Shown here one piece after another: positions 560 to 62,449 of a stretch of 64,000 nt of DNA. Made by a program: the position numbers and the translations under genes. This DNA is from a virus. Within the stretch, counting starts at the first letter, position 1; every line of letters begins with the position of its first letter. The DNA lies in IMG/VR virus record IMGVR_UViG_3300029826_000001, positions 3,304 to 67,303 of that record; one strand, written 5' to 3'. Below the pieces are notes generated by a model. It saw nothing but the letters and a program-made list of their open reading frames with translations. It searched no databases and was not told where the DNA came from.

Positions 560-631
560 TTAAGCCAATAATTACTATAATGCATTAAGCAAAAAACCAA
601 CAAAGGTTACAAAATATCAAAAGGACTAGAT
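560..631 (+). promoter_or_regulatory. early promoter/leader cassette P1
   Basis: TTAAGCCAATAATTACTATAAT ... AAAAAACCAAC ... AAGGACTAGAT-ATG. Confidence 0.85.
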
Positions 632-859
632 ATGACAAAAACAGAGCAATTAAAACAGCTTATCGAAAACAACGAAATGGATAAGGCACTTTCACTTGCT
701 AAGTCATTTAAGATTTGGGATAGAAAGGAGGATAAAGAGGTGGTTATATTGGCTCATGAGTGCAATGTTAACCCAGACTTTTACAGACAGATAGGAAAGG
801 ATGTTCCAGCTTGTATTGAGGCTGGAGTAAACACGCTGAAAAGAATTTACTTGGACTAG
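632..859 (+). CDS. hypothetical early protein
   Basis: ORF directly after P1 and its RBS. Confidence 0.75.
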   Translation: MTKTEQLKQLIENNEMDKALSLAKSFKIWDRKEDKEVVILAHECNVNPDFYRQIGKDVPACIEAGVNTLKRIYLD

Positions 860-28500: not shown

Positions 28501-30872
28501 ATGCAAATTCAACTGACGAGACTGTGCAGGAAAATTACAAACATACAATTTTAGGCTCCCATGCAGTTGATGAGACACTACTAACTGGTGAAGACCCTCA
28601 ATTTTATATGACTGGTCAAGCTATTGATATGTTGACTTTCTACGGTGTTGGTTCCCAGACGATGTTTGAAATGACATCTGGTTCAATTTACCTCACCTAT
28701 TCAAACAGAGATGAAGAACACAGAATGGGTCTTGTGGATACTTTTTTGTTGGAGCAAAAATTTAATCATTTTGCACTTAGTATTGATATGCAAACAGCGG
28801 AAGCTATTTTGTATATGAATCATAAAGAAGTTGGTCGAACAACGGCATCTGACCCAAATGGCTTCATACATATCTATCGGTTTGTGAATGGGTTCATAGG
28901 CGGTATGACTAAAACTGACCCATCTGGTCGGTATATCGATATAAGTCATCGTGGGAAATTCGCTATTGATAATATACGAATCATAGATAGGGTGCTAAAT
29001 ACCTCTGAAATTGCCAAACTGGAGTATGAAGGCATAGAGGGAATGATAATATCATCAAGGGTTGAGAGATTCACTATACATAGAATGTCATTCACACAGA
29101 CTATGGAGAGAGCATTATTATACAAAGTTGGTGATGATAGGAGTAGGGATACATTCAATGACTGTAGCTTAATTGGGTATTGGGATTGGAAAGGTGACGG
29201 CAGAAACAAATCTCTGTATAGAACCAAAGAGACCAAACTACACATTGATGAATTTTTTTATGAAGACATACTTGATTATATCCCATCTTCATGGCTTGGC
29301 TACGATTCAAAAAACAAGCGAAATTACGTCAAAGTTGGCTCAATTAGAGGTGGTGTAGCATTAGGGCAAGGTATAGACAGCTATGAGTTTTCTATCTCAT
29401 GGAGCGTTACTGATAATACATATTTTGGAATAGGTGTGTCTCACCAGAGTGGTATTTTTGATATCCCCACATCTACTGGTATGGGTCAACCTATGAAAAT
29501 ATTGCAGGGAAATAAATTCACACCGTACTCCTATTCCGATTTTTTAGGAGGGCAGATAGATGTAACTGGGATGACTAGAAGAGGTGATGATGAATGGAAT
29601 TACTTCACCCTCACTCAGAAGTTGGTCGGTGGGAAATTTGAATGTACGCTCTATGTCAATGAGCAAAAATTCACAACTTTAAACGATGTTCCTATGTTCC
29701 CTTTTGCGGATGAGGGGGTCAATGTCAATAAAGACTATGTACCGCACAATTTATATCTCGCAACAACCGTACCCAATGTCGCTGGTGCTTCCGTTAAAGC
29801 GGTAGGCGCATTGAGACTCTTTAATAGGGCATTAACCGATAAAGAAGCCTTTTCCCTTGTCGATGATAAATTTGATGGCATTACTGAGCTATTCAATGTT
29901 GTAAATACTATCAATGCGCCATACACCATCATTGAAGAGCCAATTTTTATACGTCAACACATCTACCCAGATTTTGTGCAATTCGACAACAGAGATGTGG
30001 TTGATATCTTTGGTGATGAGTCTGGTATGTACCTATGGAAATTTGACGGTGACTTGGGTGAAGAAGGCGAACGTGCAGTTTTATTGTCTTCCACATCTGA
30101 TTACACCTATGAGGATGCTGTATTTGACGAAGGATTATACTGTCCTAGTGAGACCTCCCAATCATTCAGGTACTCTCTACCCGTGACATCAAGGGTGCTT
30201 ACTATCTCATCACATATTAAATATCTCTATCTATTTGATTACGATCAGGTTGGTGGACTTCATATCGAGTCAAACACAAGTGAATATAGTGGTATAAACT
30301 TTTTTTATGAACCAACATTTAACAGATTCACACTTGAAAAATATGAATGGGGTATAGGGAATATAACATACGCAACTGGTATTGCACCTTTCACGGTTGA
30401 AGAGATGACAACTGAGTATCACAACGTTGTCTTAAAACTCGACCTTGATGCTATCTTTTTTGAACTGACGGTTGATAACATTGTGGTATTTAGTGGAACC
30501 ATTGATTCTGGTAGTTACAATAGAATGGATGGAACCCCAAATGAGTTACGGATTGGGTATGGTTCACATGGGTATGGGTATTCAAGAGCGGGTTATGACC
30601 AAATACGAATGTTCAATAAAATTTTGTCGGACGATGAAGTGGCTATGCTTAAAACTGAAGCAAGACCACCTGTCGGCTTCATGGTCGTTAATACCATTGA
30701 AGAGGTAAAATATGATATGATTGAGGTAGTGAATGGAATTGAAGCATTCAAGTTTGAGGAATTCAAATTTACACAGAGATTCAAAATTGTATCTGAGTTT
30801 TACAAAATGAACATTACACAGTCTATACAGCAGAAACATAACACTCTATTCATAAAAAGGATTAAAGAATGA
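25584..30872 (+). CDS. large tail fibre/adhesin with several LamG (ConA-like) domains
   Basis: About four modules ending R.FNRAL/RIIDRVL...E; repeated DIFGD/DTFND starts. Confidence 0.8.
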   Translation: MATPVIEVFTTNRTEGTASSLTLSKPVGVVAGELLLILVANENSANGEGFGAITSESGWTQIFNYGSGNVDTYIGAYYKIATGTENETVTVPFIASDDGLGWYIRISGVDATNPIGYVRSATESTNYYVNMVGDYTYPQTDNPLMIGLASFDGSDGMPLYTSSTGWVNESSIDSPKNSNSGGASSAVFTSCSTITSSSQQIPTLLIWSTGSVVDGFIGTLFEIRSPSSLNLEASLSSNSTIYARGSIDGEIYAETDWVHYETLGGGSASWTNPTFIETENGVGAQYDAGSNITSPTIGGDQWWDGTNMLYDLVPSDATIYGIEVRVKAQPSSYNIIKDANVLITTPSKTSSNKASSAYWETGGYTTRYYGGTTDLWGLTGGLTPSELGSSARFSFLYSFKNYDASTRYLYIDVIELKIHYSYRDTNKNGNASLSASSSLTVDGALSTSFSASVFPVTLSLIQPTIIAVAPNVTVTPQTIASVMTVEPISIVSHNTLYLNTVNVNMTMLDALVSIPTPIVVIDTFEIKHGVDNEYDFLYADVIQELEPATYFYLSIIHEIQDPEISRETVDTFVFKHRLDFDYAVVTEIVPTGYPTDRFSYFKLDGDFQDEEGNLSTLSPVDDPIWEPFDIFDMCLKQSEKTDSYAQLTSQYSNYTNYTLSFWVEIGNDRVSYDYFSADVYGWMSFLDGGYNMSGYDFPNKFCQNRMNHVAVVYENPYVYVFVNGDKVRWDGGEYYKQTLVDSRIILSRIGLKDQTGHMAEMELFLRALSMSEVRQLYAKHANKPLVIKQGVMQGNPTAMIVDTFIVKNQLESSGLNYYQYTKSRFERFLIPHGVLLGTYNIIYIDYFEVKHEVESEVLASIDNRVIGESDIFGDNSTRTHIVSTITGFKDELSIQRHYYFKYGVWIDPYGFNSFQGDNMFVSEEMIHLKRSGLTRSPFGVTSLRPVCSYRGMKSFTDRRNGGVTISFFMKMFDANSTDETVQENYKHTILGSHAVDETLLTGEDPQFYMTGQAIDMLTFYGVGSQTMFEMTSGSIYLTYSNRDEEHRMGLVDTFLLEQKFNHFALSIDMQTAEAILYMNHKEVGRTTASDPNGFIHIYRFVNGFIGGMTKTDPSGRYIDISHRGKFAIDNIRIIDRVLNTSEIAKLEYEGIEGMIISSRVERFTIHRMSFTQTMERALLYKVGDDRSRDTFNDCSLIGYWDWKGDGRNKSLYRTKETKLHIDEFFYEDILDYIPSSWLGYDSKNKRNYVKVGSIRGGVALGQGIDSYEFSISWSVTDNTYFGIGVSHQSGIFDIPTSTGMGQPMKILQGNKFTPYSYSDFLGGQIDVTGMTRRGDDEWNYFTLTQKLVGGKFECTLYVNEQKFTTLNDVPMFPFADEGVNVNKDYVPHNLYLATTVPNVAGASVKAVGALRLFNRALTDKEAFSLVDDKFDGITELFNVVNTINAPYTIIEEPIFIRQHIYPDFVQFDNRDVVDIFGDESGMYLWKFDGDLGEEGERAVLLSSTSDYTYEDAVFDEGLYCPSETSQSFRYSLPVTSRVLTISSHIKYLYLFDYDQVGGLHIESNTSEYSGINFFYEPTFNRFTLEKYEWGIGNITYATGIAPFTVEEMTTEYHNVVLKLDLDAIFFELTVDNIVVFSGTIDSGSYNRMDGTPNELRIGYGSHGYGYSRAGYDQIRMFNKILSDDEVAMLKTEARPPVGFMVVNTIEEVKYDMIEVVNGIEAFKFEEFKFTQRFKIVSEFYKMNITQSIQQKHNTLFIKRIKE

Positions 30873-36174: not shown

Positions 36175-36300
36175 CCTATTGATAAATTCGTCAATACCCT
36201 ATTGATATTTTTATCAATACCCTATTGACAAATATGTCAAGTAAATAATACAAGATATTAATAATATAAAATATATTTAATAAATTAAATATACAAAAGT
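36175..36300. repeat. three 23-bp tandem palindromic iterons plus AT-rich tract; candidate replication origin
   Basis: CCTATTGAy-N6-rTCAA units at 36175, 36198 and 36221, followed by about 60 bp of nearly pure A/T. Confidence 0.7.
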
Positions 36301-36344: not shown

Positions 36345-36400
36345 TAAGTCAATAATTGTTATAATATTCTTTGCAATAAAACCAACACAAAGGATTAGAT
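36345..36400 (+). promoter_or_regulatory. early promoter/leader cassette P2
   Basis: TAAGTCAATAATTGTTATAAT...AAAACCAAC..AAGGATTAGAT-ATG. Confidence 0.85.
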
Positions 36401-37168
36401 ATGGTCGAAGATTCAAAAAAGAATGACATTGTAATTTCTGAACAAAAACCACAAAAGGACAATTGGCTTACACTCGAAGAAAAGCAGATTGTTATGACAC
36501 AGTTTTTCCCACCTAATGCTACTCAGGCAGATATGGTGTACTGCATGAATGTTGCAAAGACTTTCAACCTCAACCCTATACTAAAGCAAATCTTCTTTGT
36601 TAGCAGAAGAACAAAGAATGAAGAGACTGGACAGTGGATAACAAAAATCGAACCGCTTGCTGGTAGGGATAGTTTTCTTACCCTCGCACACAGAACAAAG
36701 ATGTTCGATGGGATAGAGAGTCATATTGAGGTCAAGGAGATACCTTCACTTGAAAATGGTGAATGGGTTATGAAGAAAGAGCTTGTTGCCATTGCGAATG
36801 TATGGAGAAAAGACACTCAAAGACCATTCTCGGTAGAGGTATCATACAGCGAGTATGTACAAAAGACAAGCAATGGAGAGGTTACAAAGTTCTGGAAAGA
36901 TAAGCCTCACACTATGCTCAAAAAGGTTGCAGAGTCTCAGGCACTTAGAAAGGCTTTCAATATCACTGGTCTATACGATGAAAGTGAGCTTGATAATGAG
37001 GCAGAGAAAAGAAAAAACACAACAAATGCAAAAGAAAATCTTGATGAAAAACTTGAGATTCCATATGCAACAAAAAATAATGTACCTCAGAAACAAGTAG
37101 TAGAAGAAGAATATATCGAGCATGACGATATTGTTGTTGAATCAATAACTGGTGAAGAAAATGAATGA
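36401..37168 (+). CDS. bet: Bet/RecT-family single-strand annealing recombinase
   Basis: LNP..KQI.F, W...P.TML.KVAESQALRKAF..TGLYDESE. Confidence 0.9.
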   Translation: MVEDSKKNDIVISEQKPQKDNWLTLEEKQIVMTQFFPPNATQADMVYCMNVAKTFNLNPILKQIFFVSRRTKNEETGQWITKIEPLAGRDSFLTLAHRTKMFDGIESHIEVKEIPSLENGEWVMKKELVAIANVWRKDTQRPFSVEVSYSEYVQKTSNGEVTKFWKDKPHTMLKKVAESQALRKAFNITGLYDESELDNEAEKRKNTTNAKENLDEKLEIPYATKNNVPQKQVVEEEYIEHDDIVVESITGEENE

Positions 37169-38234
37169 GACACTCGGAGTAATTGAGAGCAGTGAAGAGT
37201 ACCATAGCAACAAAGCTATTGGTAGTACAACTTGCAAGGCATACATGGTAAACCCAGTAAAGGCATACAAGACATGGAGTGGTGAGATTGAGATGAAGGA
37301 GTCTCAGGCATTGATTGATGGCAAGTTGATTCATTGTCTGATACTTGAGCCTCATGTGTTTAACGATGAGTTCCATATTCTTGGAGATGGTGACATAAGA
37401 TACAATAAGGAACTTGTTCAACACATAGAGGAGAATATACTAAATAAACGAATGGTATTGTACCCTCAAGAGCTTTTAACACCTTCTGGCAACCTATCAT
37501 CCTCAAAAAAGGCAAAAGAGGAAATAGAGGCATTTAAGCTTAAAAATGGGGATTGTTTATTTTTAACACCAGCTCAATACGCTGAATACAAGTTTTATCT
37601 GAATGTAAAAGGCAAGATTTTAATTACCAATGAGCAGTACGAGTATGCAAGTAAAATAGCAAAAAAGGCACTTGCATATGAGTTCCAGATGACTACAACT
37701 ATGGGGGTGTTCACGTTTACTCTTCAGGATGCAATCAATAACGAATCTGCGATTATGGAGAGGTCGTTCTACGCATGGTACAACCCAGATACTGGAGAAG
37801 TAACCAAAGAGAAGATGACTGAAGATTCAATCCATGTAAAAACAAAGCCAGACATCATGCTTGAGGTCGGTAAAATGATTTATGTTGTGATTGATGTCAA
37901 GAGTGCCATTGATGCAAGTCCAGATACAGTAAGAAGTGCTGGTAGGTTGTTTTATCATCTTCAGGAGGCACACTATACAAAGATTCTTGAGGCACATGGA
38001 ATCAAGGTGTATAAGTTCAAATTTATGTTCACTGGTAAAGAGGAGTGGTCTACTTGCCAAGATTATGAGTATGGAGAAACTACTAAAGATTTGGGTGTAC
38101 AGCATTTTCACAAAGCAATGAAGATGCATAGACTAGCAATCAATGGAGAAGTCAGGGAGACCATCTTTGATGGAGAAAAGTACGATAGGGAGCCAGTAGT
38201 TGATGTTCCAAACTGGTTGTTTTATCTTGATTAG
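37161..38234 (+). CDS. RecE/ExoVIII-like PD-(D/E)XK exonuclease
   Basis: EEYH...IGST, G.L.H.LILEP, ERSFY, K.KPD, IDVKS, YHLQ.A.Y; adjacent to bet. Confidence 0.85.
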   Translation: MNETLGVIESSEEYHSNKAIGSTTCKAYMVNPVKAYKTWSGEIEMKESQALIDGKLIHCLILEPHVFNDEFHILGDGDIRYNKELVQHIEENILNKRMVLYPQELLTPSGNLSSSKKAKEEIEAFKLKNGDCLFLTPAQYAEYKFYLNVKGKILITNEQYEYASKIAKKALAYEFQMTTTMGVFTFTLQDAINNESAIMERSFYAWYNPDTGEVTKEKMTEDSIHVKTKPDIMLEVGKMIYVVIDVKSAIDASPDTVRSAGRLFYHLQEAHYTKILEAHGIKVYKFKFMFTGKEEWSTCQDYEYGETTKDLGVQHFHKAMKMHRLAINGEVRETIFDGEKYDREPVVDVPNWLFYLD

Positions 38235-38874: not shown

Positions 38875-39198
38875 ATGTCAGATAGAAAAAAGATTGTAGT
38901 TGAGGCTGAGCTTGATGCTACTGGTAATGGTATAACCTATTTGTATATTGGAGACATATACTTAACCTACATAATTAAGCCAGTTAGTATTGATTTGGAT
39001 GACCTAGCTCCAGAGAATTTTGTTGACTGCAACAAGTATGATGCACTTGAAAATGAAACAAGTACGGTTGGTGAAGCAAAAGTTGTTGAAGATTATCCTA
39101 CGGTCAGGTATGGTGAGGTTGATGAAGCATTGAGGTTGAAAGACAAAGGTTTTTCTGATGAAGTGATTATTGAGATAATCAAGTTGGCTAAAAATTAA
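38875..39198 (+). CDS. hypothetical protein
   Basis: AGGAGG RBS. Confidence 0.65.
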   Translation: MSDRKKIVVEAELDATGNGITYLYIGDIYLTYIIKPVSIDLDDLAPENFVDCNKYDALENETSTVGEAKVVEDYPTVRYGEVDEALRLKDKGFSDEVIIEIIKLAKN

Positions 39199-39212
39199 AG
39201 AGGTAAATTAAA

Positions 39213-39818
39213 ATGAATATCGGTTGGGTACAACAAAAAGAAGTAAAAACAGATGGTGGAACAGCAAAGTTCCTTGAGATGTCAATTAGAGCACCCTTTG
39301 GCTCCATGACGGCAACACTTACAAAATATAAACCAAAGGAAGGTGAGGAGCATAATGAAAACTCACCAGATTACTACATCAACTTCAGTCCAAACAGAAA
39401 GGGTGAGAGCTTTGACAGAATGAGAGTTGGAGCACTTTGGATGAAGCAATCTCAAAACAATGAGACATACATGAGTGGATACATTGACAGTCCTTTTATG
39501 GTTCCAGCTGGTAGACTGCATATCAATGTGGTCAAGTATGTTCACAGAGAAGGAATGAAAGTTCAGCCTATTCTCTACAATGTGCTCTGGAGTTCACAAG
39601 CTGAGAATGACAGTCACAAAAGAAGAACAGCTAGTCAAGGTGGATATGATGATGGTAGAGGTGGTGATTATGATAGCGGTTATGCAGATTATCAAGAATC
39701 AGTAGGTCAGAGTCAGCAAGTTGGAACAACTGCTGGTGGAGCACCAGTAACTGTTGAAAATGCTCCAGCACATCATATTCCAGAAATTGACATCAGTGAA
39801 GAAGAAATACCCTTTTAG
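39213..39818 (+). CDS. ssDNA-binding protein (DUF736-like OB fold)
   Basis: NSPDY...VGALW.K....Y.SG.ID.P; Gly-rich linker; acidic EEEIPF tail. Confidence 0.8.
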   Translation: MNIGWVQQKEVKTDGGTAKFLEMSIRAPFGSMTATLTKYKPKEGEEHNENSPDYYINFSPNRKGESFDRMRVGALWMKQSQNNETYMSGYIDSPFMVPAGRLHINVVKYVHREGMKVQPILYNVLWSSQAENDSHKRRTASQGGYDDGRGGDYDSGYADYQESVGQSQQVGTTAGGAPVTVENAPAHHIPEIDISEEEIPF

Positions 39819-39829
39819 AATGGAATCAT

Positions 39830-39870
39830 TTAATCTAAAATATAATTCCATTTTAGATAAAGAATTTTTA
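39830..39870 (+). terminator. AT-rich hairpin after the SSB gene
   Basis: ATCTAAAAT / ATTTTAGAT stem followed by a T run. Confidence 0.4.
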
Positions 39871-39889
39871 AGGTAAGTATTGTTATAAT
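39867..39889 (+). promoter_or_regulatory. promoter for the ncRNA/initiator unit
   Basis: TTTAAGGTAAGTATTGTTATAAT; variant of the early promoter lacking the CCAATAA core and the AACCAAC leader. Confidence 0.75.
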
Positions 39890-39895
39890 ACGACA

Positions 39896-40160
39896 ACCTA
39901 TGAAGGAGGGTTTGTTGGTTGCTTCCCATCCTTCAAAAAGTAGGTAGGAGTAACAGCCTTAGCTCCGATTCTTGACATGAAGCTAGTTTCCTAGTCCGAA
40001 CGGTCGCTTCATTCAAGAAGGTTCCTTATGTAATTTTAATGCAGTTGTCCAACTGTATCAGACTTTGGGTGCCACCCCTCTTCCCCTTTAGGCACCCAAG
40101 TTTGATTATCTGACTGTTGCATTAAGATTATCCTCAAGGATTTGGCATTGGACAACTGCT
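39896..40160 (+). ncRNA. structured multi-hairpin RNA; candidate antisense regulator of early leaders
   Basis: Stems ACCTA-TGAAGGA-GGG/CCC-TCCTTCA-TAGGT, TTCTTGA-ATGAAGC/GCTTCAT-TCAAGAA and TTGGGTGCC/GGCACCCAA; first stem starts 7 nt after TATAAT; no credible ORF. Confidence 0.7.
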
Positions 40161-40189
40161 AATCAATCTTAAATAAAATTGTCGAAAGA

Positions 40190-40861
40190 ATGGATATGGG
40201 GAATCCAAATTACTTTGGAATTATTACTGCTCCTATAAGATACTCAAAAACGCTAACTGATTTCCAGAAAATACTGTACTCTGATATAGTTGCATTATCA
40301 AATAGATATGGCTATTGCACAGCATCTAATGACTACTTTGGTAATTTGTTCGATAAGGCTCCAGAGACAATATCTCGCTCAATAAGTGCATTACAGAAAG
40401 AAGGTCATTTAAAAGTCGTTATGGTTTACGACAAGGAAAAGCCAAGATTAATCATAGGAAGAAGAATATATCCAGTAACTAAGTTCGATGAAGATAATCC
40501 ACTTGATGAAAAATATCGAACAGAAGAGCAAGTTCCACAGCATAGAAAAAAGAAAAAAGCAGAACAAGTTGAAATACCAGCATGGATAGATAGAGAGATA
40601 TGGAGTCTATGGGAGTCACATAGGGCTGAAAAAGGACAAAAGCTAACCCCAACATCAATAAAACAGCAAATCAAGCTCCTAGAGGCAAACAAGCCACTTT
40701 ATAGGGATATTATCATTCAATCAATAAGGAATGGTTGGACTGGACTATTCCCTATCAAACCAAATGCTGGTATAATTAATAAGCCAGAAGAGGGAAGCAT
40801 AGGTTGGCATATGCAGAATGAAGAAAGGAACTCAGATACCATTGATGCGGAGATAGAATAA
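40190..40861 (+). CDS. replication initiator (N-terminal winged HTH, HTH_36-like)
   Basis: PNYF.II.A.IRY...L....KILY.DI.ALSN..GYC.ASN.YF...ISR.IS.L; C-term II.QSI.NGW.GLF. Confidence 0.85.
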   Translation: MDMGNPNYFGIITAPIRYSKTLTDFQKILYSDIVALSNRYGYCTASNDYFGNLFDKAPETISRSISALQKEGHLKVVMVYDKEKPRLIIGRRIYPVTKFDEDNPLDEKYRTEEQVPQHRKKKKAEQVEIPAWIDREIWSLWESHRAEKGQKLTPTSIKQQIKLLEANKPLYRDIIIQSIRNGWTGLFPIKPNAGIINKPEEGSIGWHMQNEERNSDTIDAEIE

Positions 40862-41466
40862 TGGCAAATATTAATCCAGACCATCTTTTGATTTTAGCTG
40901 GAATTATGGGGTTGGATGTCAACTCTCGTTCAGACAGCAAATTCATAGGATATTGCATCAACGGTATAAATGATATTGATGCATTTATCCAGTATTGCAA
41001 TGATAAAAAGGATGGAATCATAGCAAAAAGGCAAGAGAAGCTAAATATCCTTTCAATAAAATTCAAAAAAATGGAAGAAGATGCAAGGCTAAGTGATGAC
41101 TCGAATAAGGCATTAGTATATGCAAAGAGGCTTGCTGAGAAGGTTGCAGAAACAAGAAGCAGTGTCAAAAATGCAAGGGAAGAACAAGAGTTCAAAGGTA
41201 TTGACGTTACAGCTGGGTTTGGAAGTGTAATAGACCACTACACAAAAGAAAAATACTTCACAGATAAAGAGATTGCAACACTTGTTGCAGTAGCAAAAAA
41301 CACAGAGAAAGTTATCTTCTATTCAGAGACTGGGGAACTCGCAGACATGATTTATCAGGCATATATAAACAAGCTTAAACCAAAAAAGAAGTACGAAGCA
41401 CTCGCTGATGGTCAAAAGAACGTTATGAAGATGATAAGTGGAGCGGTCAAACATGGAGAAGACTAA
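40861..41466 (+). CDS. replication-associated hypothetical protein (helicase-loader position)
   Basis: Coupled to the initiator; no clear motif. Confidence 0.55.
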   Translation: MANINPDHLLILAGIMGLDVNSRSDSKFIGYCINGINDIDAFIQYCNDKKDGIIAKRQEKLNILSIKFKKMEEDARLSDDSNKALVYAKRLAEKVAETRSSVKNAREEQEFKGIDVTAGFGSVIDHYTKEKYFTDKEIATLVAVAKNTEKVIFYSETGELADMIYQAYINKLKPKKKYEALADGQKNVMKMISGAVKHGED

Positions 41467-43453: not shown

Positions 43454-43530
43454 TGGTGGGTAAGTATGGACTTGAACCATAGACCAACCGCTTATGAGGT
43501 GGTTGCTCTAACCAACTGAGCTACATACCC
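43454..43530 (-). tRNA. tRNA-Ile2/Met (anticodon CAT), Ile2-like
   Basis: GGGTATGTAGCTCAGTTGGTTAGAGCA...CT-CAT-AA...GGTTCAAGTCCA...ACCA. Confidence 0.85.
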
Positions 43531-43544
43531 GAAATATTGATATT

Positions 43545-43621
43545 TGGCTGAGATAGGGGGCATCGAACCCCCAAACATCACATTAACAGTGTGACGGATT
43601 TACTAGTTTGCCTATATCTCA
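43545..43621 (-). tRNA. tRNA-Asn (GTT)
   Basis: TCACA-CTGTTAA-TGTGA anticodon arm, G73, encoded CCA. Confidence 0.85.
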
Positions 43622-43625
43622 ATAG

Positions 43626-43715
43626 TGGAGGAGTATGTAGGATTTGAACCTACGGTAGTTTTAACTACAAGTGACTAGCAATCACCCAGATTAAACCAGA
43701 CTCTCTCAATACTCC
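43626..43715 (-). tRNA. tRNA-Ser (GCT)
   Basis: TT-GCT-AG loop, long variable arm GTAGT/ACTAC, encoded CCA. Confidence 0.85.
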
Positions 43716-43720
43716 ATGTA

Positions 43721-43819
43721 TGGCAAGTATCTCTGGACTTGAACCAGATTTGAGGTCATGACAAACTCAACGCTCTAAAGAAACACTCAACTAGTATCAT
43801 TCCAATATAGCAAATACTT
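43721..43819 (-). ncRNA. atypical 99-nt tRNA-like RNA
   Basis: Paired acceptor AAGTATT/GATACTT-G-CCA and T arm TCTGG-TTCAAGT-CCAGA, with an enlarged non-canonical middle. Confidence 0.5.
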
Positions 43820-43837
43820 ACAGATAAAAAAACAATA

Positions 43838-43912
43838 TGGAGCGTCAGGGTGGATTCTAACCACCGACCTTCCAGCTGGAAACTGGATGCTCTAACACTG
43901 AGCTACTAACGC
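43838..43912 (-). tRNA. tRNA-Gly (TCC)
   Basis: TCCAG-TTTCCAG-CTGGA arm, U73, CCA; variant T loop TTAGAAT. Confidence 0.8.
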
Positions 43913-44146: not shown

Positions 44147-44903
44147 AGTAAGCAAAGTTTCAGACAGTACACTTGAAGAAATAAAGATTCTTTGGGAGAA
44201 GGGTGAGAGGAATAATTCCAATATCGCTTCGATGTTTGAAGAGTACAATGTAACTGAAAAGAATATTCGAGACTGGGCTAAAAAGTTCGGATGGACTAGG
44301 GAGCATAAGCCTTCACTGAAGAGACCAAAGGTTGGAGATGCTGGAGCAGTTGTAAGGCTCACAGATAAAAGAAGAAAAAAGAAACCAAAACAAAATCCAG
44401 AAGTACAGAAGAAAACTCACGGAGACCAGCAGAGGGAAGATATACTTAGGTCGATGGAGGAGATAGAGAGAGGTGAAAGATTCTCAACAAAGGAGTTGAA
44501 CGAGATTCTTGAAATCATCCTTGAGATGATAGTGTCTGGATACAGAAAGACACAAATAAAACAGTTTCTGGAACGAAAAAGACAAGTTGCCACCCACTTA
44601 TTTAACGAACTACACTTACACGCTATCAAAGCACTAGCAGACTCAATAGAATATAATATGATGTCAAGATATGCATTCCATGTTGAAGCAAGACTCAGGC
44701 TTTTAAGAAAGCTTGAGGAAAAGGAAGACTGGAGAGGTGTTCATGCTGTGCTTATGGATTTAGGTAGGCTTGAAGGTGTGTATCCTAAAGACCCTATACT
44801 CGACATGAAGGGTGTTGAATCCACCAAGAAGGTATTCGCACTCAAGGTTCCAGATGAGTATAGGAACATGGCTATCACAGCAAAGGTGATTCCAAATGAG
44901 TAG
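44139..44903 (+). CDS. terminase small subunit-like protein
   Basis: HTH-like N-terminus (IA..F....V....IRDWAKK.GW); overlaps terL; TTG start after GGAGG. Confidence 0.7.
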   Translation: MSKVSKVSDSTLEEIKILWEKGERNNSNIASMFEEYNVTEKNIRDWAKKFGWTREHKPSLKRPKVGDAGAVVRLTDKRRKKKPKQNPEVQKKTHGDQQREDILRSMEEIERGERFSTKELNEILEIILEMIVSGYRKTQIKQFLERKRQVATHLFNELHLHAIKALADSIEYNMMSRYAFHVEARLRLLRKLEEKEDWRGVHAVLMDLGRLEGVYPKDPILDMKGVESTKKVFALKVPDEYRNMAITAKVIPNE

Positions 44904-46212
44904 AGTAGAGACACTAGTAGAACAAATTGATATGACGGCTCTGTTCGAGACAACGAACAAAAAGTACATTCCGTTCTACTGGGATATGTCAAGATATTTT
45001 ATTGCATTCGGTGGTGCTGGGTCAGGTAAATCAAGATGGGTCGGTCAAAAGATGCTCTATCGTATGCTTGATGAGACCCCACATAGAATACTTATTGTAA
45101 GAAAGGTAGCAACAACCCTAAGAAAGTCTGTCTTCCAGCTTATGGTCGACTATATCCATAAGTACGGTCTGTCATCGAAGTTCATAATCAGAAAAGGCGA
45201 TATGACCATAGAGTGTGAGAATGGTAACCAGATGTACTTTATGGGTCTTGATGATGTTGAGAAGCTAAAGTCAATCGAGGGTATTACAAGCATATGGATT
45301 GAAGAAGCAAGTGAAATCACTCAAGACGACTTCTTGCAACTAGACTTGCGTTTGAGAGGTTACACTCAAAACTATCAGCAGATTACATTATCATTTAACC
45401 CGATATCTGAGCACCATTGGATTAGAAAACTCTTTTTTACTGATGATATCGAAGAAACGATTGATGAAGACGGATGCTACATCGGTGATGATGTAACGAT
45501 AGTGAAGTCAACTTATCTTGATAATGAGTACATAGACGATAGATATAAAAAGGTTCTCAACGACCTAAAGCTAAAAGACCTGAGAATGTATAATATATAC
45601 GCTCTTGGTAAGTGGGGTGTTCTTGGTAATTTGGTATTTAACCCATACAATGACATCACAAGGTTTCCGACAGTCGCACAGATTCCAGACCTACAAATAA
45701 CATACGGTGTTGACTTTGGTTTTACCAACCCATCAACATTTATAAAAATAGGTTATTCAAAGCTCAATAATGCACTATATTTGGATGAACTATATTACGA
45801 ATCAAACACAACCAAACCAGAATTTATAACAGCCGTCAAAAGGTCAAATCCAGACATGAAAGATATTGTCGGGTACGGTGACTCAGCTGAACCAGCCTCA
45901 ATCAAAGAATTTACTAAATCTGGGTTCAAGATGAAGTCGGCACACAAAGACACAAACATGAGTATCGACTTTATAAATAGGCATACTGTATACATCACAT
46001 CAAGAAGCAAGAATCTAAAAAAAGAGTGGGAAGGATACAAGTGGAAACAAAATAAGGATGGCGAGACGGTTGATGAGGTCGTAAAAACAAATGACCACTG
46101 TATAGATGCTGTTAGGTATGGTGCATACACTAAGTGGGGAATCATTGTAGACTCGAAGGGTCATGTTTCAGATAAGCAAATGTCAATCATCAAATCTTAT
46201 GGCAAATATTAA
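44896..46212 (+). CDS. terL: terminase large subunit, PBSX family
   Basis: GGAGSGKS, GLDDVEKLKS, WIEEASE, SFNP, STYLDN, GVDFGF..P, DSAEP, NDHCIDAVRY. Confidence 0.95.
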   Translation: MSRVETLVEQIDMTALFETTNKKYIPFYWDMSRYFIAFGGAGSGKSRWVGQKMLYRMLDETPHRILIVRKVATTLRKSVFQLMVDYIHKYGLSSKFIIRKGDMTIECENGNQMYFMGLDDVEKLKSIEGITSIWIEEASEITQDDFLQLDLRLRGYTQNYQQITLSFNPISEHHWIRKLFFTDDIEETIDEDGCYIGDDVTIVKSTYLDNEYIDDRYKKVLNDLKLKDLRMYNIYALGKWGVLGNLVFNPYNDITRFPTVAQIPDLQITYGVDFGFTNPSTFIKIGYSKLNNALYLDELYYESNTTKPEFITAVKRSNPDMKDIVGYGDSAEPASIKEFTKSGFKMKSAHKDTNMSIDFINRHTVYITSRSKNLKKEWEGYKWKQNKDGETVDEVVKTNDHCIDAVRYGAYTKWGIIVDSKGHVSDKQMSIIKSYGKY

Positions 46213-46220
46213 TATTAAAA

Positions 46221-46274
46221 TAAGCCAATAATTGTTATAATAATGTACACAAAAACCAACAAAAAAGGAAACAG
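46221..46274 (+). promoter_or_regulatory. early promoter/leader cassette P3
   Basis: TAAGCCAATAATTGTTATAAT...AAAAACCAAC AAAAAAGGAAACAG-ATG; lacks GGACTAG. Confidence 0.85.
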
Positions 46275-46733
46275 ATGAAAACTGGAAATTTCTCTCACAA
46301 GATACCTAGCGACAAATATTGTAGGGTATCAATAGCGGTCGGAGACCCAAAGTATGGTGATAAGCCAGATTTTAAGATAGACCAACTTGCACCGACATGG
46401 AAGCTACTCAATGCATTTAGAAATGAAATGATTACAGAAGAAGAATATGTTGCTCAATTCAATGAACAATTATCTGTACTCAATCCAAAAGGAACGCTAG
46501 AAGCAATCAAAAAAGCGTGTGGAGACAAGGAGCCAGTATTATTGTGTCACTGTGGGAAACAACACTTTTGTCATAGACATCTTGTTGCTGAATGGCTTGA
46601 GAATGGAACTGGTGAAAAAATTGAGGAATTCAATTATGGTGAAACACCAAGATATCATGGAAGAATCATCAAAGGTGTAAAACATAGTGAAGAAGAGCCA
46701 GAACAATCATTAGAATGGAGTCTGTTTGGATAA
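46275..46733 (+). CDS. DUF488-like protein
   Basis: LAPTW.LL...Y...F...L...VLLC.....FCHRHLVAEWL. Confidence 0.8.
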   Translation: MKTGNFSHKIPSDKYCRVSIAVGDPKYGDKPDFKIDQLAPTWKLLNAFRNEMITEEEYVAQFNEQLSVLNPKGTLEAIKKACGDKEPVLLCHCGKQHFCHRHLVAEWLENGTGEKIEEFNYGETPRYHGRIIKGVKHSEEEPEQSLEWSLFG

Positions 46734-50984: not shown

Positions 50985-51039
50985 TTAAGCCAATAAATGT
51001 CATAATACTTGTACTTAAAAACCAACATAAGGACTAGAC
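50985..51039 (+). promoter_or_regulatory. early promoter/leader cassette P4
   Basis: TTAAGCCAATAAATGTCATAAT...AAAAACCAAC.TAAGGACTAGAC-ATG. Confidence 0.85.
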
Positions 51040-51216
51040 ATGGAAGACATTAAAAAGAAGATAGCCATTGAAGCAATCAGAATGGTTGCAAAGCACTATA
51101 ACACTACAGCATCAAAAGTTGCTCAATCAATTAAAGATGGAAATGAAAAAGTCAAGAATCAAGTTAACTTTATTTGTGTTGCAACTCTAAATAATCTACT
51201 AGTGGAATCGGCATGA
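51040..51216 (+). CDS. hypothetical early protein (58 aa, not in ORF track)
   Basis: First ORF after P4: MEDIKKKIAIEAI...VESA. Confidence 0.7.
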   Translation: MEDIKKKIAIEAIRMVAKHYNTTASKVAQSIKDGNEKVKNQVNFICVATLNNLLVESA

Positions 51217-52147: not shown

Positions 52148-52203
52148 TTAAGCCAATAATTGTTATAATACAGATACCAACAAACCAACAAAAAGGACTA
52201 AAA
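52148..52203 (+). promoter_or_regulatory. early promoter/leader cassette P5
   Basis: TTAAGCCAATAATTGTTATAAT...ACCAACAAACCAAC AAAAAGGACTAAAA-ATG; motif duplicated. Confidence 0.85.
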
Positions 52204-52488
52204 ATGAAATTAACTACCTTCTCAGTAAGAGACTTTGACGATAAACTAACTGGTCATGTACTGATTGATATTTCAGACAGAGACAAAGCAAAGGTAGAGT
52301 TTGTATTAAACTATCTTGCTAACATCGGTGGATGGAGCATAGCTAACTGCCCTAACGAGGAAGATGGTGTTTATTCTGACTCAATTTCTGTTCTTTCATG
52401 TGAAGTAAAGCTCGCAAAGGAATATTACAAAGATGCAAAGACTGAACTTCAAAAGCTAATAAAATCAATTCGTGATACCAATTTCTAG
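52204..52488 (+). CDS. hypothetical early protein
   Basis: First ORF after P5. Confidence 0.7.
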   Translation: MKLTTFSVRDFDDKLTGHVLIDISDRDKAKVEFVLNYLANIGGWSIANCPNEEDGVYSDSISVLSCEVKLAKEYYKDAKTELQKLIKSIRDTNF

Positions 52489-53943: not shown

Positions 53944-54015
53944 TTAAGCCAACAATTGTTATAATACGTTATATCAAAAAACCAACTTGATATAAAAAAA
54001 TACTAAGGACTAGAT
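53944..54015 (+). promoter_or_regulatory. early promoter/leader cassette P6 with hairpin
   Basis: TTAAGCCAACAATTGTTATAAT; TTATATCAA-AAAACCAAC-TTGATATAA; AAGGACTAGAT. Confidence 0.85.
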
Positions 54016-54321
54016 ATGAAACATCCACTAAAATTTGACCACAGTAAAAAGGATATCTTTGAAGCTATAGGCACAACACCAGATGAGCTTAGTGAGGCAT
54101 TCGATGATAAGAACAATGAGTTGCACAGAGTTTCAAAAATACTCAATGTGATGATGGACAATGGTCACATCTCAAAAGATGGTCTTGGAGCGATGATTGC
54201 TACATTTTCGTTTATGACTGGAAATACTTCGGGCTACGTTTCTGAAATGATTGAAAAATACCTAGACTCTCTTGATGCCGACAATGTTGATGCGGTTTTG
54301 AAAAAGTGTGAGGAGGAATAA
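54016..54321 (+). CDS. hypothetical early protein
   Basis: First ORF after P6. Confidence 0.7.
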   Translation: MKHPLKFDHSKKDIFEAIGTTPDELSEAFDDKNNELHRVSKILNVMMDNGHISKDGLGAMIATFSFMTGNTSGYVSEMIEKYLDSLDADNVDAVLKKCEEE

Positions 54322-56883: not shown

Positions 56884-56958
56884 TTAAGCCAATAAATGTT
56901 ATAATCAATGCATGAATAAAACCAACTATTCATAAATAAATTACAGAAGGACTAGATT
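56884..56958 (+). promoter_or_regulatory. early promoter/leader cassette P7 with hairpin
   Basis: TTAAGCCAATAAATGTTATAAT; ATGAATA-AAACCAAC-TATTCAT; AAGGACTAGA. Confidence 0.85.
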
Positions 56959-57309
56959 ATGGAAAATCTATTTAGACTCAACAGAAACGGACATACGGCA
57001 GAGGAAATTTTCGGTAAACCTACAGACGAGCTTGTTAAGATAACAATGGAAGATTTATACGCAGATATTCCTTTTGCACTGTTTATCTACAGAGCAACAA
57101 CGGTGAAGGCTGATTTAATGGCTCCAGTATCTATTATTCTTGGTGTATTAATCGGAAGAAGGCTTGAAGAGAGAGAAGACATGGTTGAGTATCTTGTTAA
57201 CTCAGTCAGGGATAGGGGTGATAGAGAGATTGTGATTAGGGCATTGAGTTTCATAACGGACAAGGAAGATATGATGAAAATTTTAAAAAGAGAGGAAGAG
57301 CAATGTTAG
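56959..57309 (+). CDS. hypothetical early protein
   Basis: First ORF after P7. Confidence 0.7.
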   Translation: MENLFRLNRNGHTAEEIFGKPTDELVKITMEDLYADIPFALFIYRATTVKADLMAPVSIILGVLIGRRLEEREDMVEYLVNSVRDRGDREIVIRALSFITDKEDMMKILKREEEQC

Positions 57310-58267: not shown

Positions 58268-58337
58268 TTAAGCCAATAAATACTATAATATGATATGTCA
58301 AAAAACCAACTTGACAAATAAAAATAAGGACTAGAAA
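58268..58337 (+). promoter_or_regulatory. early promoter/leader cassette P8 with hairpin
   Basis: TTAAGCCAATAAATACTATAAT; TGTCAA-AAAACCAAC-TTGACA; AAGGACTAGAA. Confidence 0.85.
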
Positions 58338-58649
58338 ATGGCATACGCATACCCAATATGGAATAAAGTTGAAGCTTGTATCTATAACTCCGATAAAAGC
58401 TATGGAGCGAAAGAAACAAGCAAGGTAAACATCTTGGTAGGTAGTAGTAAGTCGAACTCTTACGAACTTGCAGAGGCAATCACAACAAAAAGAAGATACT
58501 TCGATGAGGATGCAAATGAATACAGATGGAAATTCAGACATTCTGTAGACGGTGTTATCCTCAAGGAAATAATCTTTAAAGACAACAAAGGTAAAGCTGG
58601 TGAGTTTATCAAAGAGCGTTCTGCACTCAAAAGAATGAAGGGGTTGTAA
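58338..58649 (+). CDS. hypothetical phage protein
   Basis: YPIWN.V.ACIY.S.KSYG...VG.S.SNS motif. Confidence 0.7.
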   Translation: MAYAYPIWNKVEACIYNSDKSYGAKETSKVNILVGSSKSNSYELAEAITTKRRYFDEDANEYRWKFRHSVDGVILKEIIFKDNKGKAGEFIKERSALKRMKGL

Positions 58650-60497: not shown

Positions 60498-60572
60498 TTA
60501 AGCCAATTAATGTTATGATATAACTATCAAATAAAAACCAACATTTGATAAAACCAACACTAAGGACTAGAC
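60498..60572 (+). promoter_or_regulatory. early promoter/leader cassette P9 with hairpin
   Basis: TTAAGCCAATTAATGTTATGAT; TATCAAAT-AAAAACCAAC-ATTTGATA; second AAACCAAC; AAGGACTAGAC. Confidence 0.85.
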
Positions 60573-60830
60573 ATGACAGAAGAACGAAACATTGTTCTAT
60601 GGTACAGAAACAGAGCAGACAAAGACAAACTATACACATTTGATGAGATAGCTGATGGATTCCTTGAGAGTGAATTCTACTCAGACTACAAGAAGGAAAT
60701 GTATCCAAGTATCCAACAAGCACTGGTACATTACATCACAATGGAAGAAGGGCTGAATAGCTCTTATGAGGTGGATATGCTTGACCCCCTGCTTGGTCAT
60801 GTAATCAAAAGACACAAGGAGATGAGATGA
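60573..60830 (+). CDS. hypothetical early protein
   Basis: First ORF after P9. Confidence 0.7.
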   Translation: MTEERNIVLWYRNRADKDKLYTFDEIADGFLESEFYSDYKKEMYPSIQQALVHYITMEEGLNSSYEVDMLDPLLGHVIKRHKEMR

Positions 60831-62123: not shown

Positions 62124-62179
62124 TTAAGCCAACAATTGTTATAATAATGAACCTTAAAAACCAACAAAAAGGATTATAC
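62124..62179 (+). promoter_or_regulatory. early promoter/leader cassette P10
   Basis: TTAAGCCAACAATTGTTATAAT; CCTT-AAAAACCAACAAA-AAGG; GGATTATAC-ATG. Confidence 0.85.
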
Positions 62180-62449
62180 ATGGAAGTAATTATTGATGAA
62201 AGATACGGAGCAGATGCAGATGGAAACAGAGGAATCAGTAAGCAGTTTGTAGTGTTCGAGAATACTCCAGAAGAGAGAGCTACGATAGCAAAAGCCCTCT
62301 TTGATAAAGGTGTATCCAGTGAGTGTACTGGGTCATCAACTATCAAGTATGATGATGGTAGCGTTGTCGTAGAGGAGTTGGATATTGATGATGTCTATGA
62401 GTATTCATTTGAAATAAAAATGCTTGAGGAGGAGGACGATGAAAAGTAA
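62180..62449 (+). CDS. hypothetical early protein
   Basis: YGADADGNRG motif; ATG 62180 after P10. Confidence 0.7.
   Translation: MEVIIDERYGADADGNRGISKQFVVFENTPEERATIAKALFDKGVSSECTGSSTIKYDDGSVVVEELDIDDVYEYSFEIKMLEEEDDEK

Follow-up and report, generated by a model that had tools for sequence, protein, structure and literature searches.

The 64,000-nucleotide (nt) window analyzed here, the whole stretch of DNA under study, corresponds to bases 3304-67303 of a virus record (IMGVR_UViG_3300029826_000001) that is 67,303 bp long and has terminal repeats. Its G+C content is ~37%, and its + strand carries all of its long open reading frames (ORFs). The subject of this report is a 371-bp ORF-free gap at 39819-40189, between a DUF736/SSB-like gene and the gene for a putative replication initiator, and the folded RNA that a promoter within this gap is predicted to produce. 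An original prediction, made from the letters alone, held that two loops of this RNA are antisense to short motifs shared by the leaders of about ten early operons dispersed over the genome. Three internal controls (shuffles, genome windows, and start regions) indicate that the modeled complementarity of the two loops is unlikely to be due to chance, and functional base pairing of the RNA with the leaders is, in our estimation, plausible but tentative. The genes and features of the locus are listed here.

39213-39818, upstream of the gap: DUF736/SSB-like gene, with a DUF736 match and an acidic SSB-like tail (...EEEIPF) read from the translation
39816..39855, + strand: A/T-rich hairpin just past the stop of the DUF736/SSB-like gene, an inverted repeat with 14-nt arms that are 86% complementary
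39881..39889, + strand: predicted extended -10 promoter, TGTTATAAT, identified by exact-copy count and cassette comparison
39896..39945, + strand: hairpin 1, with 5 + 7 + 3 bp and a 14-nt loop, UUUGUUGGUUGCUU, at 39911-39924
39947..39966, + strand: middle hairpin, with 5 bp and a 10-nt loop whose 7-mers have unpaired probabilities of 0.64-0.67
39969..40019, + strand: hairpin 2, in which an inner 4-bp stem closes the 8-nt apical loop CCUAGUCC at 39990-39997
40031..40165, + strand: long imperfect hairpin with a 17-nt C-rich loop at 40074-40090
40190..40861, + strand: O/DnaD-like replication initiator gene with an N-terminal HTH (phrog_678, E 5e-20; alignment with the related protein P0002)

The promoter and fold of the candidate RNA

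No + strand ORF of at least 25 amino acids (aa) lies within 39819-40189, which holds only a 15-codon frame from ATG 39900 on that strand and three frames of 26-39 aa on the - strand; a small protein gene was considered for the gap and rejected, as nothing goes beyond the 15-codon frame. The promoter sequence TGTTATAAT has seven exact copies in the window versus 1.61 expected (standard deviation 1.23), a count reached by none of 100 shuffles, and the remaining six copies head leader cassettes, the repeated promoter-and-leader units described below. Upstream of the 39881 promoter, a box read by eye as a diverged cassette box agrees at 10 of 15 positions. A consensus promoter scan that required a -35 hexamer did not list the 39881 promoter. 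Judged from its sequence, this promoter is a diverged member of the cassette promoter family, but with a different leader. As in trans-acting base-pairing small RNAs (sRNAs), the candidate RNA has a promoter of its own in the predicted TGTTATAAT.

From the predicted +1 (39896), a 135-nt region folds into three hairpins at -40.6 kcal/mol (z -2.58; 1 of 200 shuffles equally good). Hairpin 1 begins exactly at the predicted +1, as four cassette hairpins do at theirs. Extending the region to the 295 nt of 39896-40190 gives a z of -4.76, with 0 of 200 shuffles equally good. The - strand of the region also folds well (z -3.50), so folding alone cannot decide the strand. The loop of hairpin 1 contains GUUGGUU (39914-39920), the complement of AACCAAC, for which the probability of being unpaired as a 7-mer is 0.154 and the opening cost is 1.14 kcal/mol. 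The apical loop of hairpin 2 holds the complement of GGACUAG with an unpaired probability of 0.849; this word, CUAGUCC, is the most exposed of the 129 7-mers in the 135-nt RNA and the sole one at or above 0.8, with 20 of the 129 reaching 0.15. For the middle hairpin at 39947..39966, no pairing partner was found. The original prediction is thus upheld on the ORF-free region with its own promoter, on a hairpin 1 that starts at 39896 and shows the reverse complement of AACCAAC in its loop, and on a hairpin 2 that does so for GGACTAG. It was also correct that the candidate RNA's own leader lacks both motifs, since neither is present on the + strand of 39896-40190.

The long imperfect hairpin at 40031..40165 has a fold z of -3.52 and two mutually exclusive outer pairings (40041-40052 with 40148-40159 and 40031-40043 with 40118-40130), and its minimum free energy and centroid structures disagree. 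Its 17-nt C-rich apical loop at 40074-40090 is predicted to be fully exposed (probability of about 1.0), and its predicted pairing with the leaders is weak. This loop resembles the C-rich, Shine-Dalgarno (SD)-binding loops of Firmicute sRNAs.

Leader cassettes and their complementarity to the two loops

Eleven leader cassettes occur in the genome, ten of them in the window and the eleventh outside it, at genome position 1590. Each is ordered as a box, TTTAAGCCAATAAT, an extended -10, AAAACCAAC 12-16 nt farther on, AAGGAYUAG, and AUG. The ten window cassettes are as follows.

573..634, + strand: cassette 1, with its promoter, AACCAAC at 595, GGACTAG at 623, and ATG at 632
36357..36403, + strand: cassette 2, of the RecT operon, with AACCAAC at 36380, GGATTAG, and ATG at 36401
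46233..46277, + strand: cassette 3, with AACCAAC at 46254, GGAAACAG, and ATG at 46275
50998..51042, + strand: cassette 4 (TGTCATAAT), with AACCAAC at 51020, GGACTAG at 51031, and ATG at 51040
52161..52206, + strand: cassette 5, with AACCAAC at 52183, GGACTAA, and ATG at 52204
53957..54018, + strand: cassette 6, with a 5' hairpin at 53972-53992 (9-bp perfect stem, AAAACCAAC loop), GGACTAG at 54007, and ATG at 54016
56897..56961, + strand: cassette 7, with a 5' hairpin at 56912-56933 (7-bp stem, AACCAAC loop), GGACTAG at 56949, and ATG at 56959
58281..58340, + strand: cassette 8, with a 5' hairpin at 58296-58316 (6-bp stem, AACCAAC loop), GGACTAG at 58328, and ATG at 58338
60511..60575, + strand: cassette 9, with a 5' hairpin at 60526-60549 (8-bp stem, AACCAAC loop), a second AACCAAC at 60552, GGACTAG at 60564, and ATG at 60573
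62137..62182, + strand: cassette 10, with AACCAAC at 62159, GGATTAT, and ATG at 62180

The original counts of the two motifs were accurate. AACCAAC is in all ten window cassettes, as had been stated, and also in the eleventh, outside the window, while GGACTAG is exact in 6 of the 10. GGATTAG and GGATTAT occur once each and are G-U compatible at the C/U position, as had been suggested for the GGATTA variants, and the two other window leaders deviate (GGACTAA and GGAAACAG). An upstream box, AAGCCAAT, and AACCAAC flank the -10 in 11 of 11 cassettes. The cassettes head DNA-metabolism and small-gene operons (RecT, dUTPase, DNA-modification genes, and others); neither the structural block nor terS-terL has one at its head. 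This one phage uses two kinds of ribosome binding site (RBS), AAGGAYUAG before the AUG of promoter-proximal genes and mostly AGGAG at internal genes, so the cassette RBS is particular to promoter-proximal genes. The candidate region was also considered as an inverted leader cassette, an idea rejected on the grounds that the motif order is reversed on the - strand and that, in our own reading, the similarity ends at 7-10 nt.

Folding of the leaders points to a role for AACCAAC in the RNA. Its mean unpaired probability is predicted to be 0.83-1.00 in 10 of the 11 leaders and 0.47 in one. In 4 of the 11 it forms the loop of a 5'-terminal hairpin, with perfect stems of 9, 7, 6, and 8 bp that all differ in sequence, and this count of four is reached by 0 of 5000 flank shuffles (mean 0.12, maximum 2). 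On these predicted folds, AACCAAC is well supported as an RNA-level signal, because the loop is constant while the stems vary, as selection on an RNA hairpin produces. Hairpin loops of this kind, with varying stems, also have the shape expected of a loop-loop kissing partner in the models.

Hereafter, site A denotes loop 1 against AACCAAC and site B denotes loop 2 against GGACUAG. Among 20000 dinucleotide shuffles of the 135 nt, complements of at least 7 nt to both AAAACCAAC and AAGGACTAGA arise in 113, and in 30 if they must include the AACCAAC core; shuffles of the 295 nt give 256 and 77 of 20000. Joint occurrence of 6-nt complements is common (1424 and 3123 of 20000 shuffles). The + strand of the genome has seven GTTGGTT and four anti-B words, which come within 150 nt of one another only at the candidate region. 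Exposure also separates these copies: the loop 1 site has 0.154 versus at most 0.009 at the six other + strand GTTGGTT sites, and the loop 2 site has 0.849 versus at most 0.004 at the three other + strand anti-B sites. By these predicted accessibilities, the loop 1 and loop 2 sites are the only accessible copies on the + strand of the genome. The loop 1 word GUUGGUU is also present in the D-loop of tRNA-Met. At 853-860, GGACTAGG is a full 8-nt match to loop 2 and overlaps the SD of an internal gene starting at 870.

Like the sequence comparisons, predicted folds, accessibilities, and tests of the complementarity, the pairing energies were obtained by computation, with home-made approximations of an accessibility-aware predictor, not IntaRNA; net energies are the sum of hybrid and opening costs and are site specific. 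Net energies are -5.3 to -9.1 kcal/mol for site A in 9 of 11 leaders and -6.3 to -9.4 kcal/mol for site B in 9 of 11. Loops 1 and 2 supply the two single-stranded segments complementary to a leader near the RBS that a C4-type RNA has. In an exhaustive local-window scan, the mean for the best site is -9.67 versus -5.07 in shuffles (standard deviation 1.11; 1 of 500 equally good), and for two nonoverlapping sites it is -15.90 versus -7.11 (standard deviation 1.67; 0 of 500 equally good). When 135-nt windows were tiled over the + strand of the whole genome, 448 in all, the one at 39898 ranked first on both measures (-8.99 and -15.22, with a runner-up at -8.02 and -11.19). When 110 start regions were ranked as partners, the cassette leaders, 11 in all, came in at 1, 2, 3, 4, 5, 6, 8, 12, 13, 17, and 22. 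The candidate RNA thereby shows what is expected of a trans-acting sRNA, an accessible seed complementary to start regions beyond chance, a result that an earlier and cruder test did not give.

Proposed mechanism and competing explanations

Transcription, RNA stability, intracellular pairing, and the direction of the effect are inferences from these computations. The extended -10 promoter at 39881 would drive transcription from about 39896, and the product, non-coding and strongly folded, would be the 5' leader of the replication-initiator operon; a stable fragment of ~135 nt may also be released from it. Loop 1, through GUUGGUU, would kiss the single-stranded AAAACCAAC at the 5' end of a leader, itself a hairpin loop in four leaders, and loop 2, CCUAGUCC, would pair with GGACUAG, between the SD GGA and the AUG. 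With the SD-to-start segment covered, 30S binding should be blocked, so the first cistrons would most likely be dampened or repressed, in a way coupled to the expression of the replication module. The influence may also run the other way, with abundant leaders binding and remodeling the replication leader. The most far-reaching form of the proposal, that one structured RNA made with the replication genes is a global riboregulator whose two kissing loops read a two-part address (the AAAACCAAC loop plus GGACUAG at the RBS) on the first genes of eleven dispersed operons, is doubtful.

If true, such a riboregulator would do with RNA what T4 RegB or a repressor protein does, and the translation of early genes would thereby be tied to the replication module. 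Recognition of one address common to about eleven operon leaders would be a novel mode of coordination for a viral program, and it would explain why promoter-proximal genes have a special leader and RBS as opposed to the ordinary AGGAG. Pairing itself, if true, would make a new variant of antisense control; the literature searched, in the portions available, reports no phage RNA that addresses many operons via a shared leader tag. The system is compact, one 135-nt RNA plus short leader RNAs, and open to in vitro testing. Even if the pairing is false, the 5' leader hairpins with a constant loop and varying stems would stand as a well-supported RNA signal.

A number of observations weigh against the proposed pairing. 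Loop 1, on the 5' side, matches the 5' motif and loop 2, farther 3', the 3' motif, an order that is not colinear for antiparallel strands, and in the short leaders the two motifs are just 4-6 nt apart. Site B is weak in 2 of 11 leaders (-0.8 and -2.6). A first energy test, with suboptimal duplexes plus opening costs, gave a mean of -5.10 versus -4.49 for shuffles (standard deviation 1.24), with 83 of 300 equally good; we attribute this negative outcome to incomplete enumeration, by which short exposed sites were missed, and the leader at 36357, for example, has -0.96 in that test versus -9.1 with site-by-site scoring. Because the eleven leaders are paralogous, the independent evidence consists of the two 7-nt matches and their exposure, and the Mann-Whitney p of the start-region ranking is inflated. 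The candidate was also picked from a very large scan, in which some such coincidences are expected, and a single RNA would face the transcripts of eleven strong promoters. The original claim of an antisense RNA to dispersed leaders is thus supported in its complementarity, its exposure, and the shuffle, genome, and start-region controls, and is opposed by the first energy test and the loop order.

Other parts of the original prediction are not supported. It had the RNA ending near 40030 as a discrete small RNA, which is not indicated: a terminator scan of the + strand over 39000-41000 found no terminator-like site, and the transcript should therefore run into the initiator gene as a 294-nt 5' leader. 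To judge from the sequence, the RNA is first of all the 5' leader of this operon and perhaps secondarily a processed RNA. An early-to-late shut-off switch was likewise proposed, yet with an early-type promoter the RNA would be made together with its supposed targets, which leaves a timing switch or late shut-off unexplained. Membership in a C4-type family, also suggested, has no Rfam match behind it: at gathering thresholds the window yields three tRNAs only and no family, C4 included, at the region, and at E up to 10 the interval 39700-40300 yields six chance matches to microRNA (miRNA) and small nucleolar RNA families, all far below cut-offs.

Comparison with relatives adds further points on the unfavorable side. 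Capsid relatives number 26 proteins, and the genome comparison covers one 41.6-kb fragment, G002, with 25% G+C and 54% complete. Closer relatives include the capsid P0017 (67% identity), encoded on a 70-kb contig, and P0014-P0016, which are on short contigs. G002 has a repeated cassette of its own, consisting of TTGACAAA, TATAAT, an A-rich leader, and AAAAAGGATTGAGAGATG (L131-L133, e.g., 29150-29240, 37460-37550, and 39140-39228), and its SD-to-start block resembles the AAGGAYUAGA of the window's phage. This fragment lacks AACCAAC, its + strand has no complement of at least 7 nt to its own conserved SD block, and its SSB-like gene is not followed by a long non-coding region. The latter two absences make it less likely that an antisense RNA has to accompany a conserved SD-to-start block, although the point is not decisive because the fragment is 54% complete.

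Three other explanations of the region have to be considered beside pairing with the leaders. The 294-nt structured RNA may act in cis only, controlling the translation or stability of its own initiator operon by way of its long, switchable hairpin and the weak RBS of the initiator, so that the 7-nt matches are a coincidence; this is possible, although we would not call it probable. With no terminator, the RNA is necessarily the 5' untranslated region of the initiator, whose start is likely ATG 40196 and whose SD is weak in the 22 nt inspected upstream, and further points in its favor are the mutually exclusive pairings within 40031-40165 and an A/U stem between 40025-40040 and the 20 nt that precede the start codon. 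As a partner of the 135-nt part, the start region of the initiator itself ranks 9 of 110, with a predicted pairing to the loop 2 region at a net -8.6 kcal/mol, and the 7-nt matches are short and come from a very large scan. Coincidence, however, sits poorly with the placement of both matches in the most exposed loops, with a rank of 1 of 448 among genome windows, with scores that beat 499-500 of 500 shuffles, and with a target motif displayed in hairpin loops.

That last feature could also suit a protein reader of the leader motifs (an RNA-binding antiterminator, stabilizer, or nuclease, or a DNA-binding regulator), the inverted copies then being irrelevant or double-stranded DNA sites near a twelfth promoter. 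The 5' hairpins with constant loops and variable stems resemble lambda boxB/nut sites. T4 RegB provides a precedent, as it inactivates many early mRNAs via a short SD motif in the account available (PMC1702504). A double-stranded site is orientation free, GTTGGTT lies at +19 of the twelfth promoter, and the flanking of the -10 by AAGCCAAT and AACCAAC is constant over the cassettes. Yet a common DNA operator is hard to reconcile with the variable stems, the copies at 39914 and 39991 do not share the position and orientation of those in the cassettes, and the exposed-loop placement of both complements is left unexplained. Pfam searches of 35 window proteins, most of which matched nothing, found no RNA-binding, antiterminator, or repressor family, and a protein reader is in our view improbable. 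We give still less credence to an origin element, in which the transcript would prime or activate replication, as in phage c2 PE1-T, or the hairpins would act as DNA beside the initiator gene. The region is indeed non-coding, promoter driven, and ORF free, lying between the SSB-like gene and the initiator, both of its strands fold well, and in phage c2 a non-coding origin region with an early promoter has a transcript needed for replication, according to the part of the source available (PMC7150918). Like PE1-T, the region combines non-coding DNA and an early promoter with the lack of an RBS or ORF. Iteron origins, on the other hand, have direct repeats and an A/T-rich block, of which neither is found in 39819-40189, whereas both are present at 36175-36293, where the classical candidate has three 23-bp palindromic repeats (36175-36243) and then an A/T-rich stretch. 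In L050, the nearest initiator relative for which context is available (38% identity), no intergenic space precedes the gene, which also speaks against an origin element.

Relatives and genomic setting

The phage is, as far as sequence comparisons go, nearly an orphan in the collections searched. A blastn search of the region against phage records gave no match, and neither the initiator nor the TerL peptides were found in viral contigs. By tblastn, the initiator has matches in 139 phage records, all below 60% identity and with at least 80% query coverage in 1 of the 139; a protein search with it gave 12 matches at E up to 1e-10, of which one, P0002, is close (49%) and lies on a 1036-bp contig. 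A search with a 668-aa protein returned 15 distant records. When the initiator alignment was taken to viral contigs, for 80 of 182 loci, nhmmer found nothing and blastn-short gave matches of at most 25 nt at E of at least 0.07. Pattern searches were no more productive: the promoter box gave one chance locus, in a record without a TerL relative, the promoter plus motif gave 46 loci with single matches, and the leader pattern gave 117 loci with single matches, with none related in either of the latter two sets. A metagenome scan found one distant HTH-only locus without a gap upstream, and the genome contigs searched held no relative. Among the sequencing runs searched, the stretch was found in three DNA runs of one study and in no RNA run; contigs from these three showed no variants in the region and no useful joints.

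Around the gap, the A/T-rich hairpin at 39816..39855 is a possible weak end of the upstream operon; it is absent from the output of the terminator scan, and the Rfam near-matches there are chance, miRNA-like ones with E about 1. The DUF736 protein has a homologue in G002, at 34% identity over 104 aa. Genes after the initiator extend to about 43519 and include a VRR-NUC nuclease, and Pfam scans of 30 further window proteins identified RecT, VRR-NUC, dUTPase, a methyltransferase-like protein, DUF488, and ParB-N. The 36175-36293 element, which appears from its sequence to be an origin-like or operator-like array, comprises three tandem 23-bp units, each a TTGAYA...TRTCAA palindrome, and then an A/T-rich palindromic stretch, some 110-180 bp before the RecT-operon promoter. 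The - strand carries four tRNA genes (Met, Asn, Ser, and Gly) at 43454-43912, opposite to every long ORF. The order of modules is unusual, with terS-terL ~25 kb on the map from the portal-MuF gene (44896-46212 and 2963-5431) and DNA-modification and small-gene operons between.

Comparison with known systems

Several known systems share parts of this arrangement. Lambda nut/boxB sites are conserved-loop hairpins close to where early transcripts begin. BoxB occurs on two transcripts, with the N protein as its reader, whereas the present phage has eleven leaders and a 9-nt loop, and its genome also encodes a complementary RNA loop. In lactococcal phage c2, PE1-T is a non-coding, ORF-free region with its own early promoter that is tied to replication, as described in the available part of PMC7150918. 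The c2 origin separates the early from the late module and needs no phage proteins; the RNA considered here precedes an initiator gene, and the iteron array is elsewhere. T4 RegB shows that one phage factor can inactivate many early mRNAs via a short motif of the SD region (PMC1702504, in the portion available). RegB is a protein nuclease that cuts GGAG, whereas the proposed reader here is an RNA and the motif is GGACUAG.

Another parallel is OxyS-fhlA of Escherichia coli, in which two short kissing contacts, one of them over the RBS, form a stable complex and block translation, a proven mode in the text available (PMC2946933). OxyS differs as a bacterial, Hfq-assisted, terminated sRNA, while here no terminator was found and the loop order is not colinear with the targets. 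A further likeness is to C4 of P1/P7 and the CI RNA of P4, which, as here, are phage-encoded folded RNAs with short loop segments. C4 has two such segments and is made from the leader of an operon. The target of C4 is downstream on the same transcript; in the present case the initiator start is predicted to pair at a net -8.6 kcal/mol, and the main predicted targets are on other transcripts. Unlike C4, the RNA described here has no Rfam match, and its target motif is itself a hairpin loop in four leaders. The loop-placed short complementary segments of the C4 and CI antisense RNAs bind near an RBS and block translation (PMC12197685). The known phage antisense RNAs C4, CI, sar, OOP, and aQ each have a single locus as their target. 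In the part of the review available, phage sRNAs act on host genes or on single phage genes (PMC12197685). C4 silences one locus, whereas eleven dispersed operons share the target motifs of the predicted RNA.

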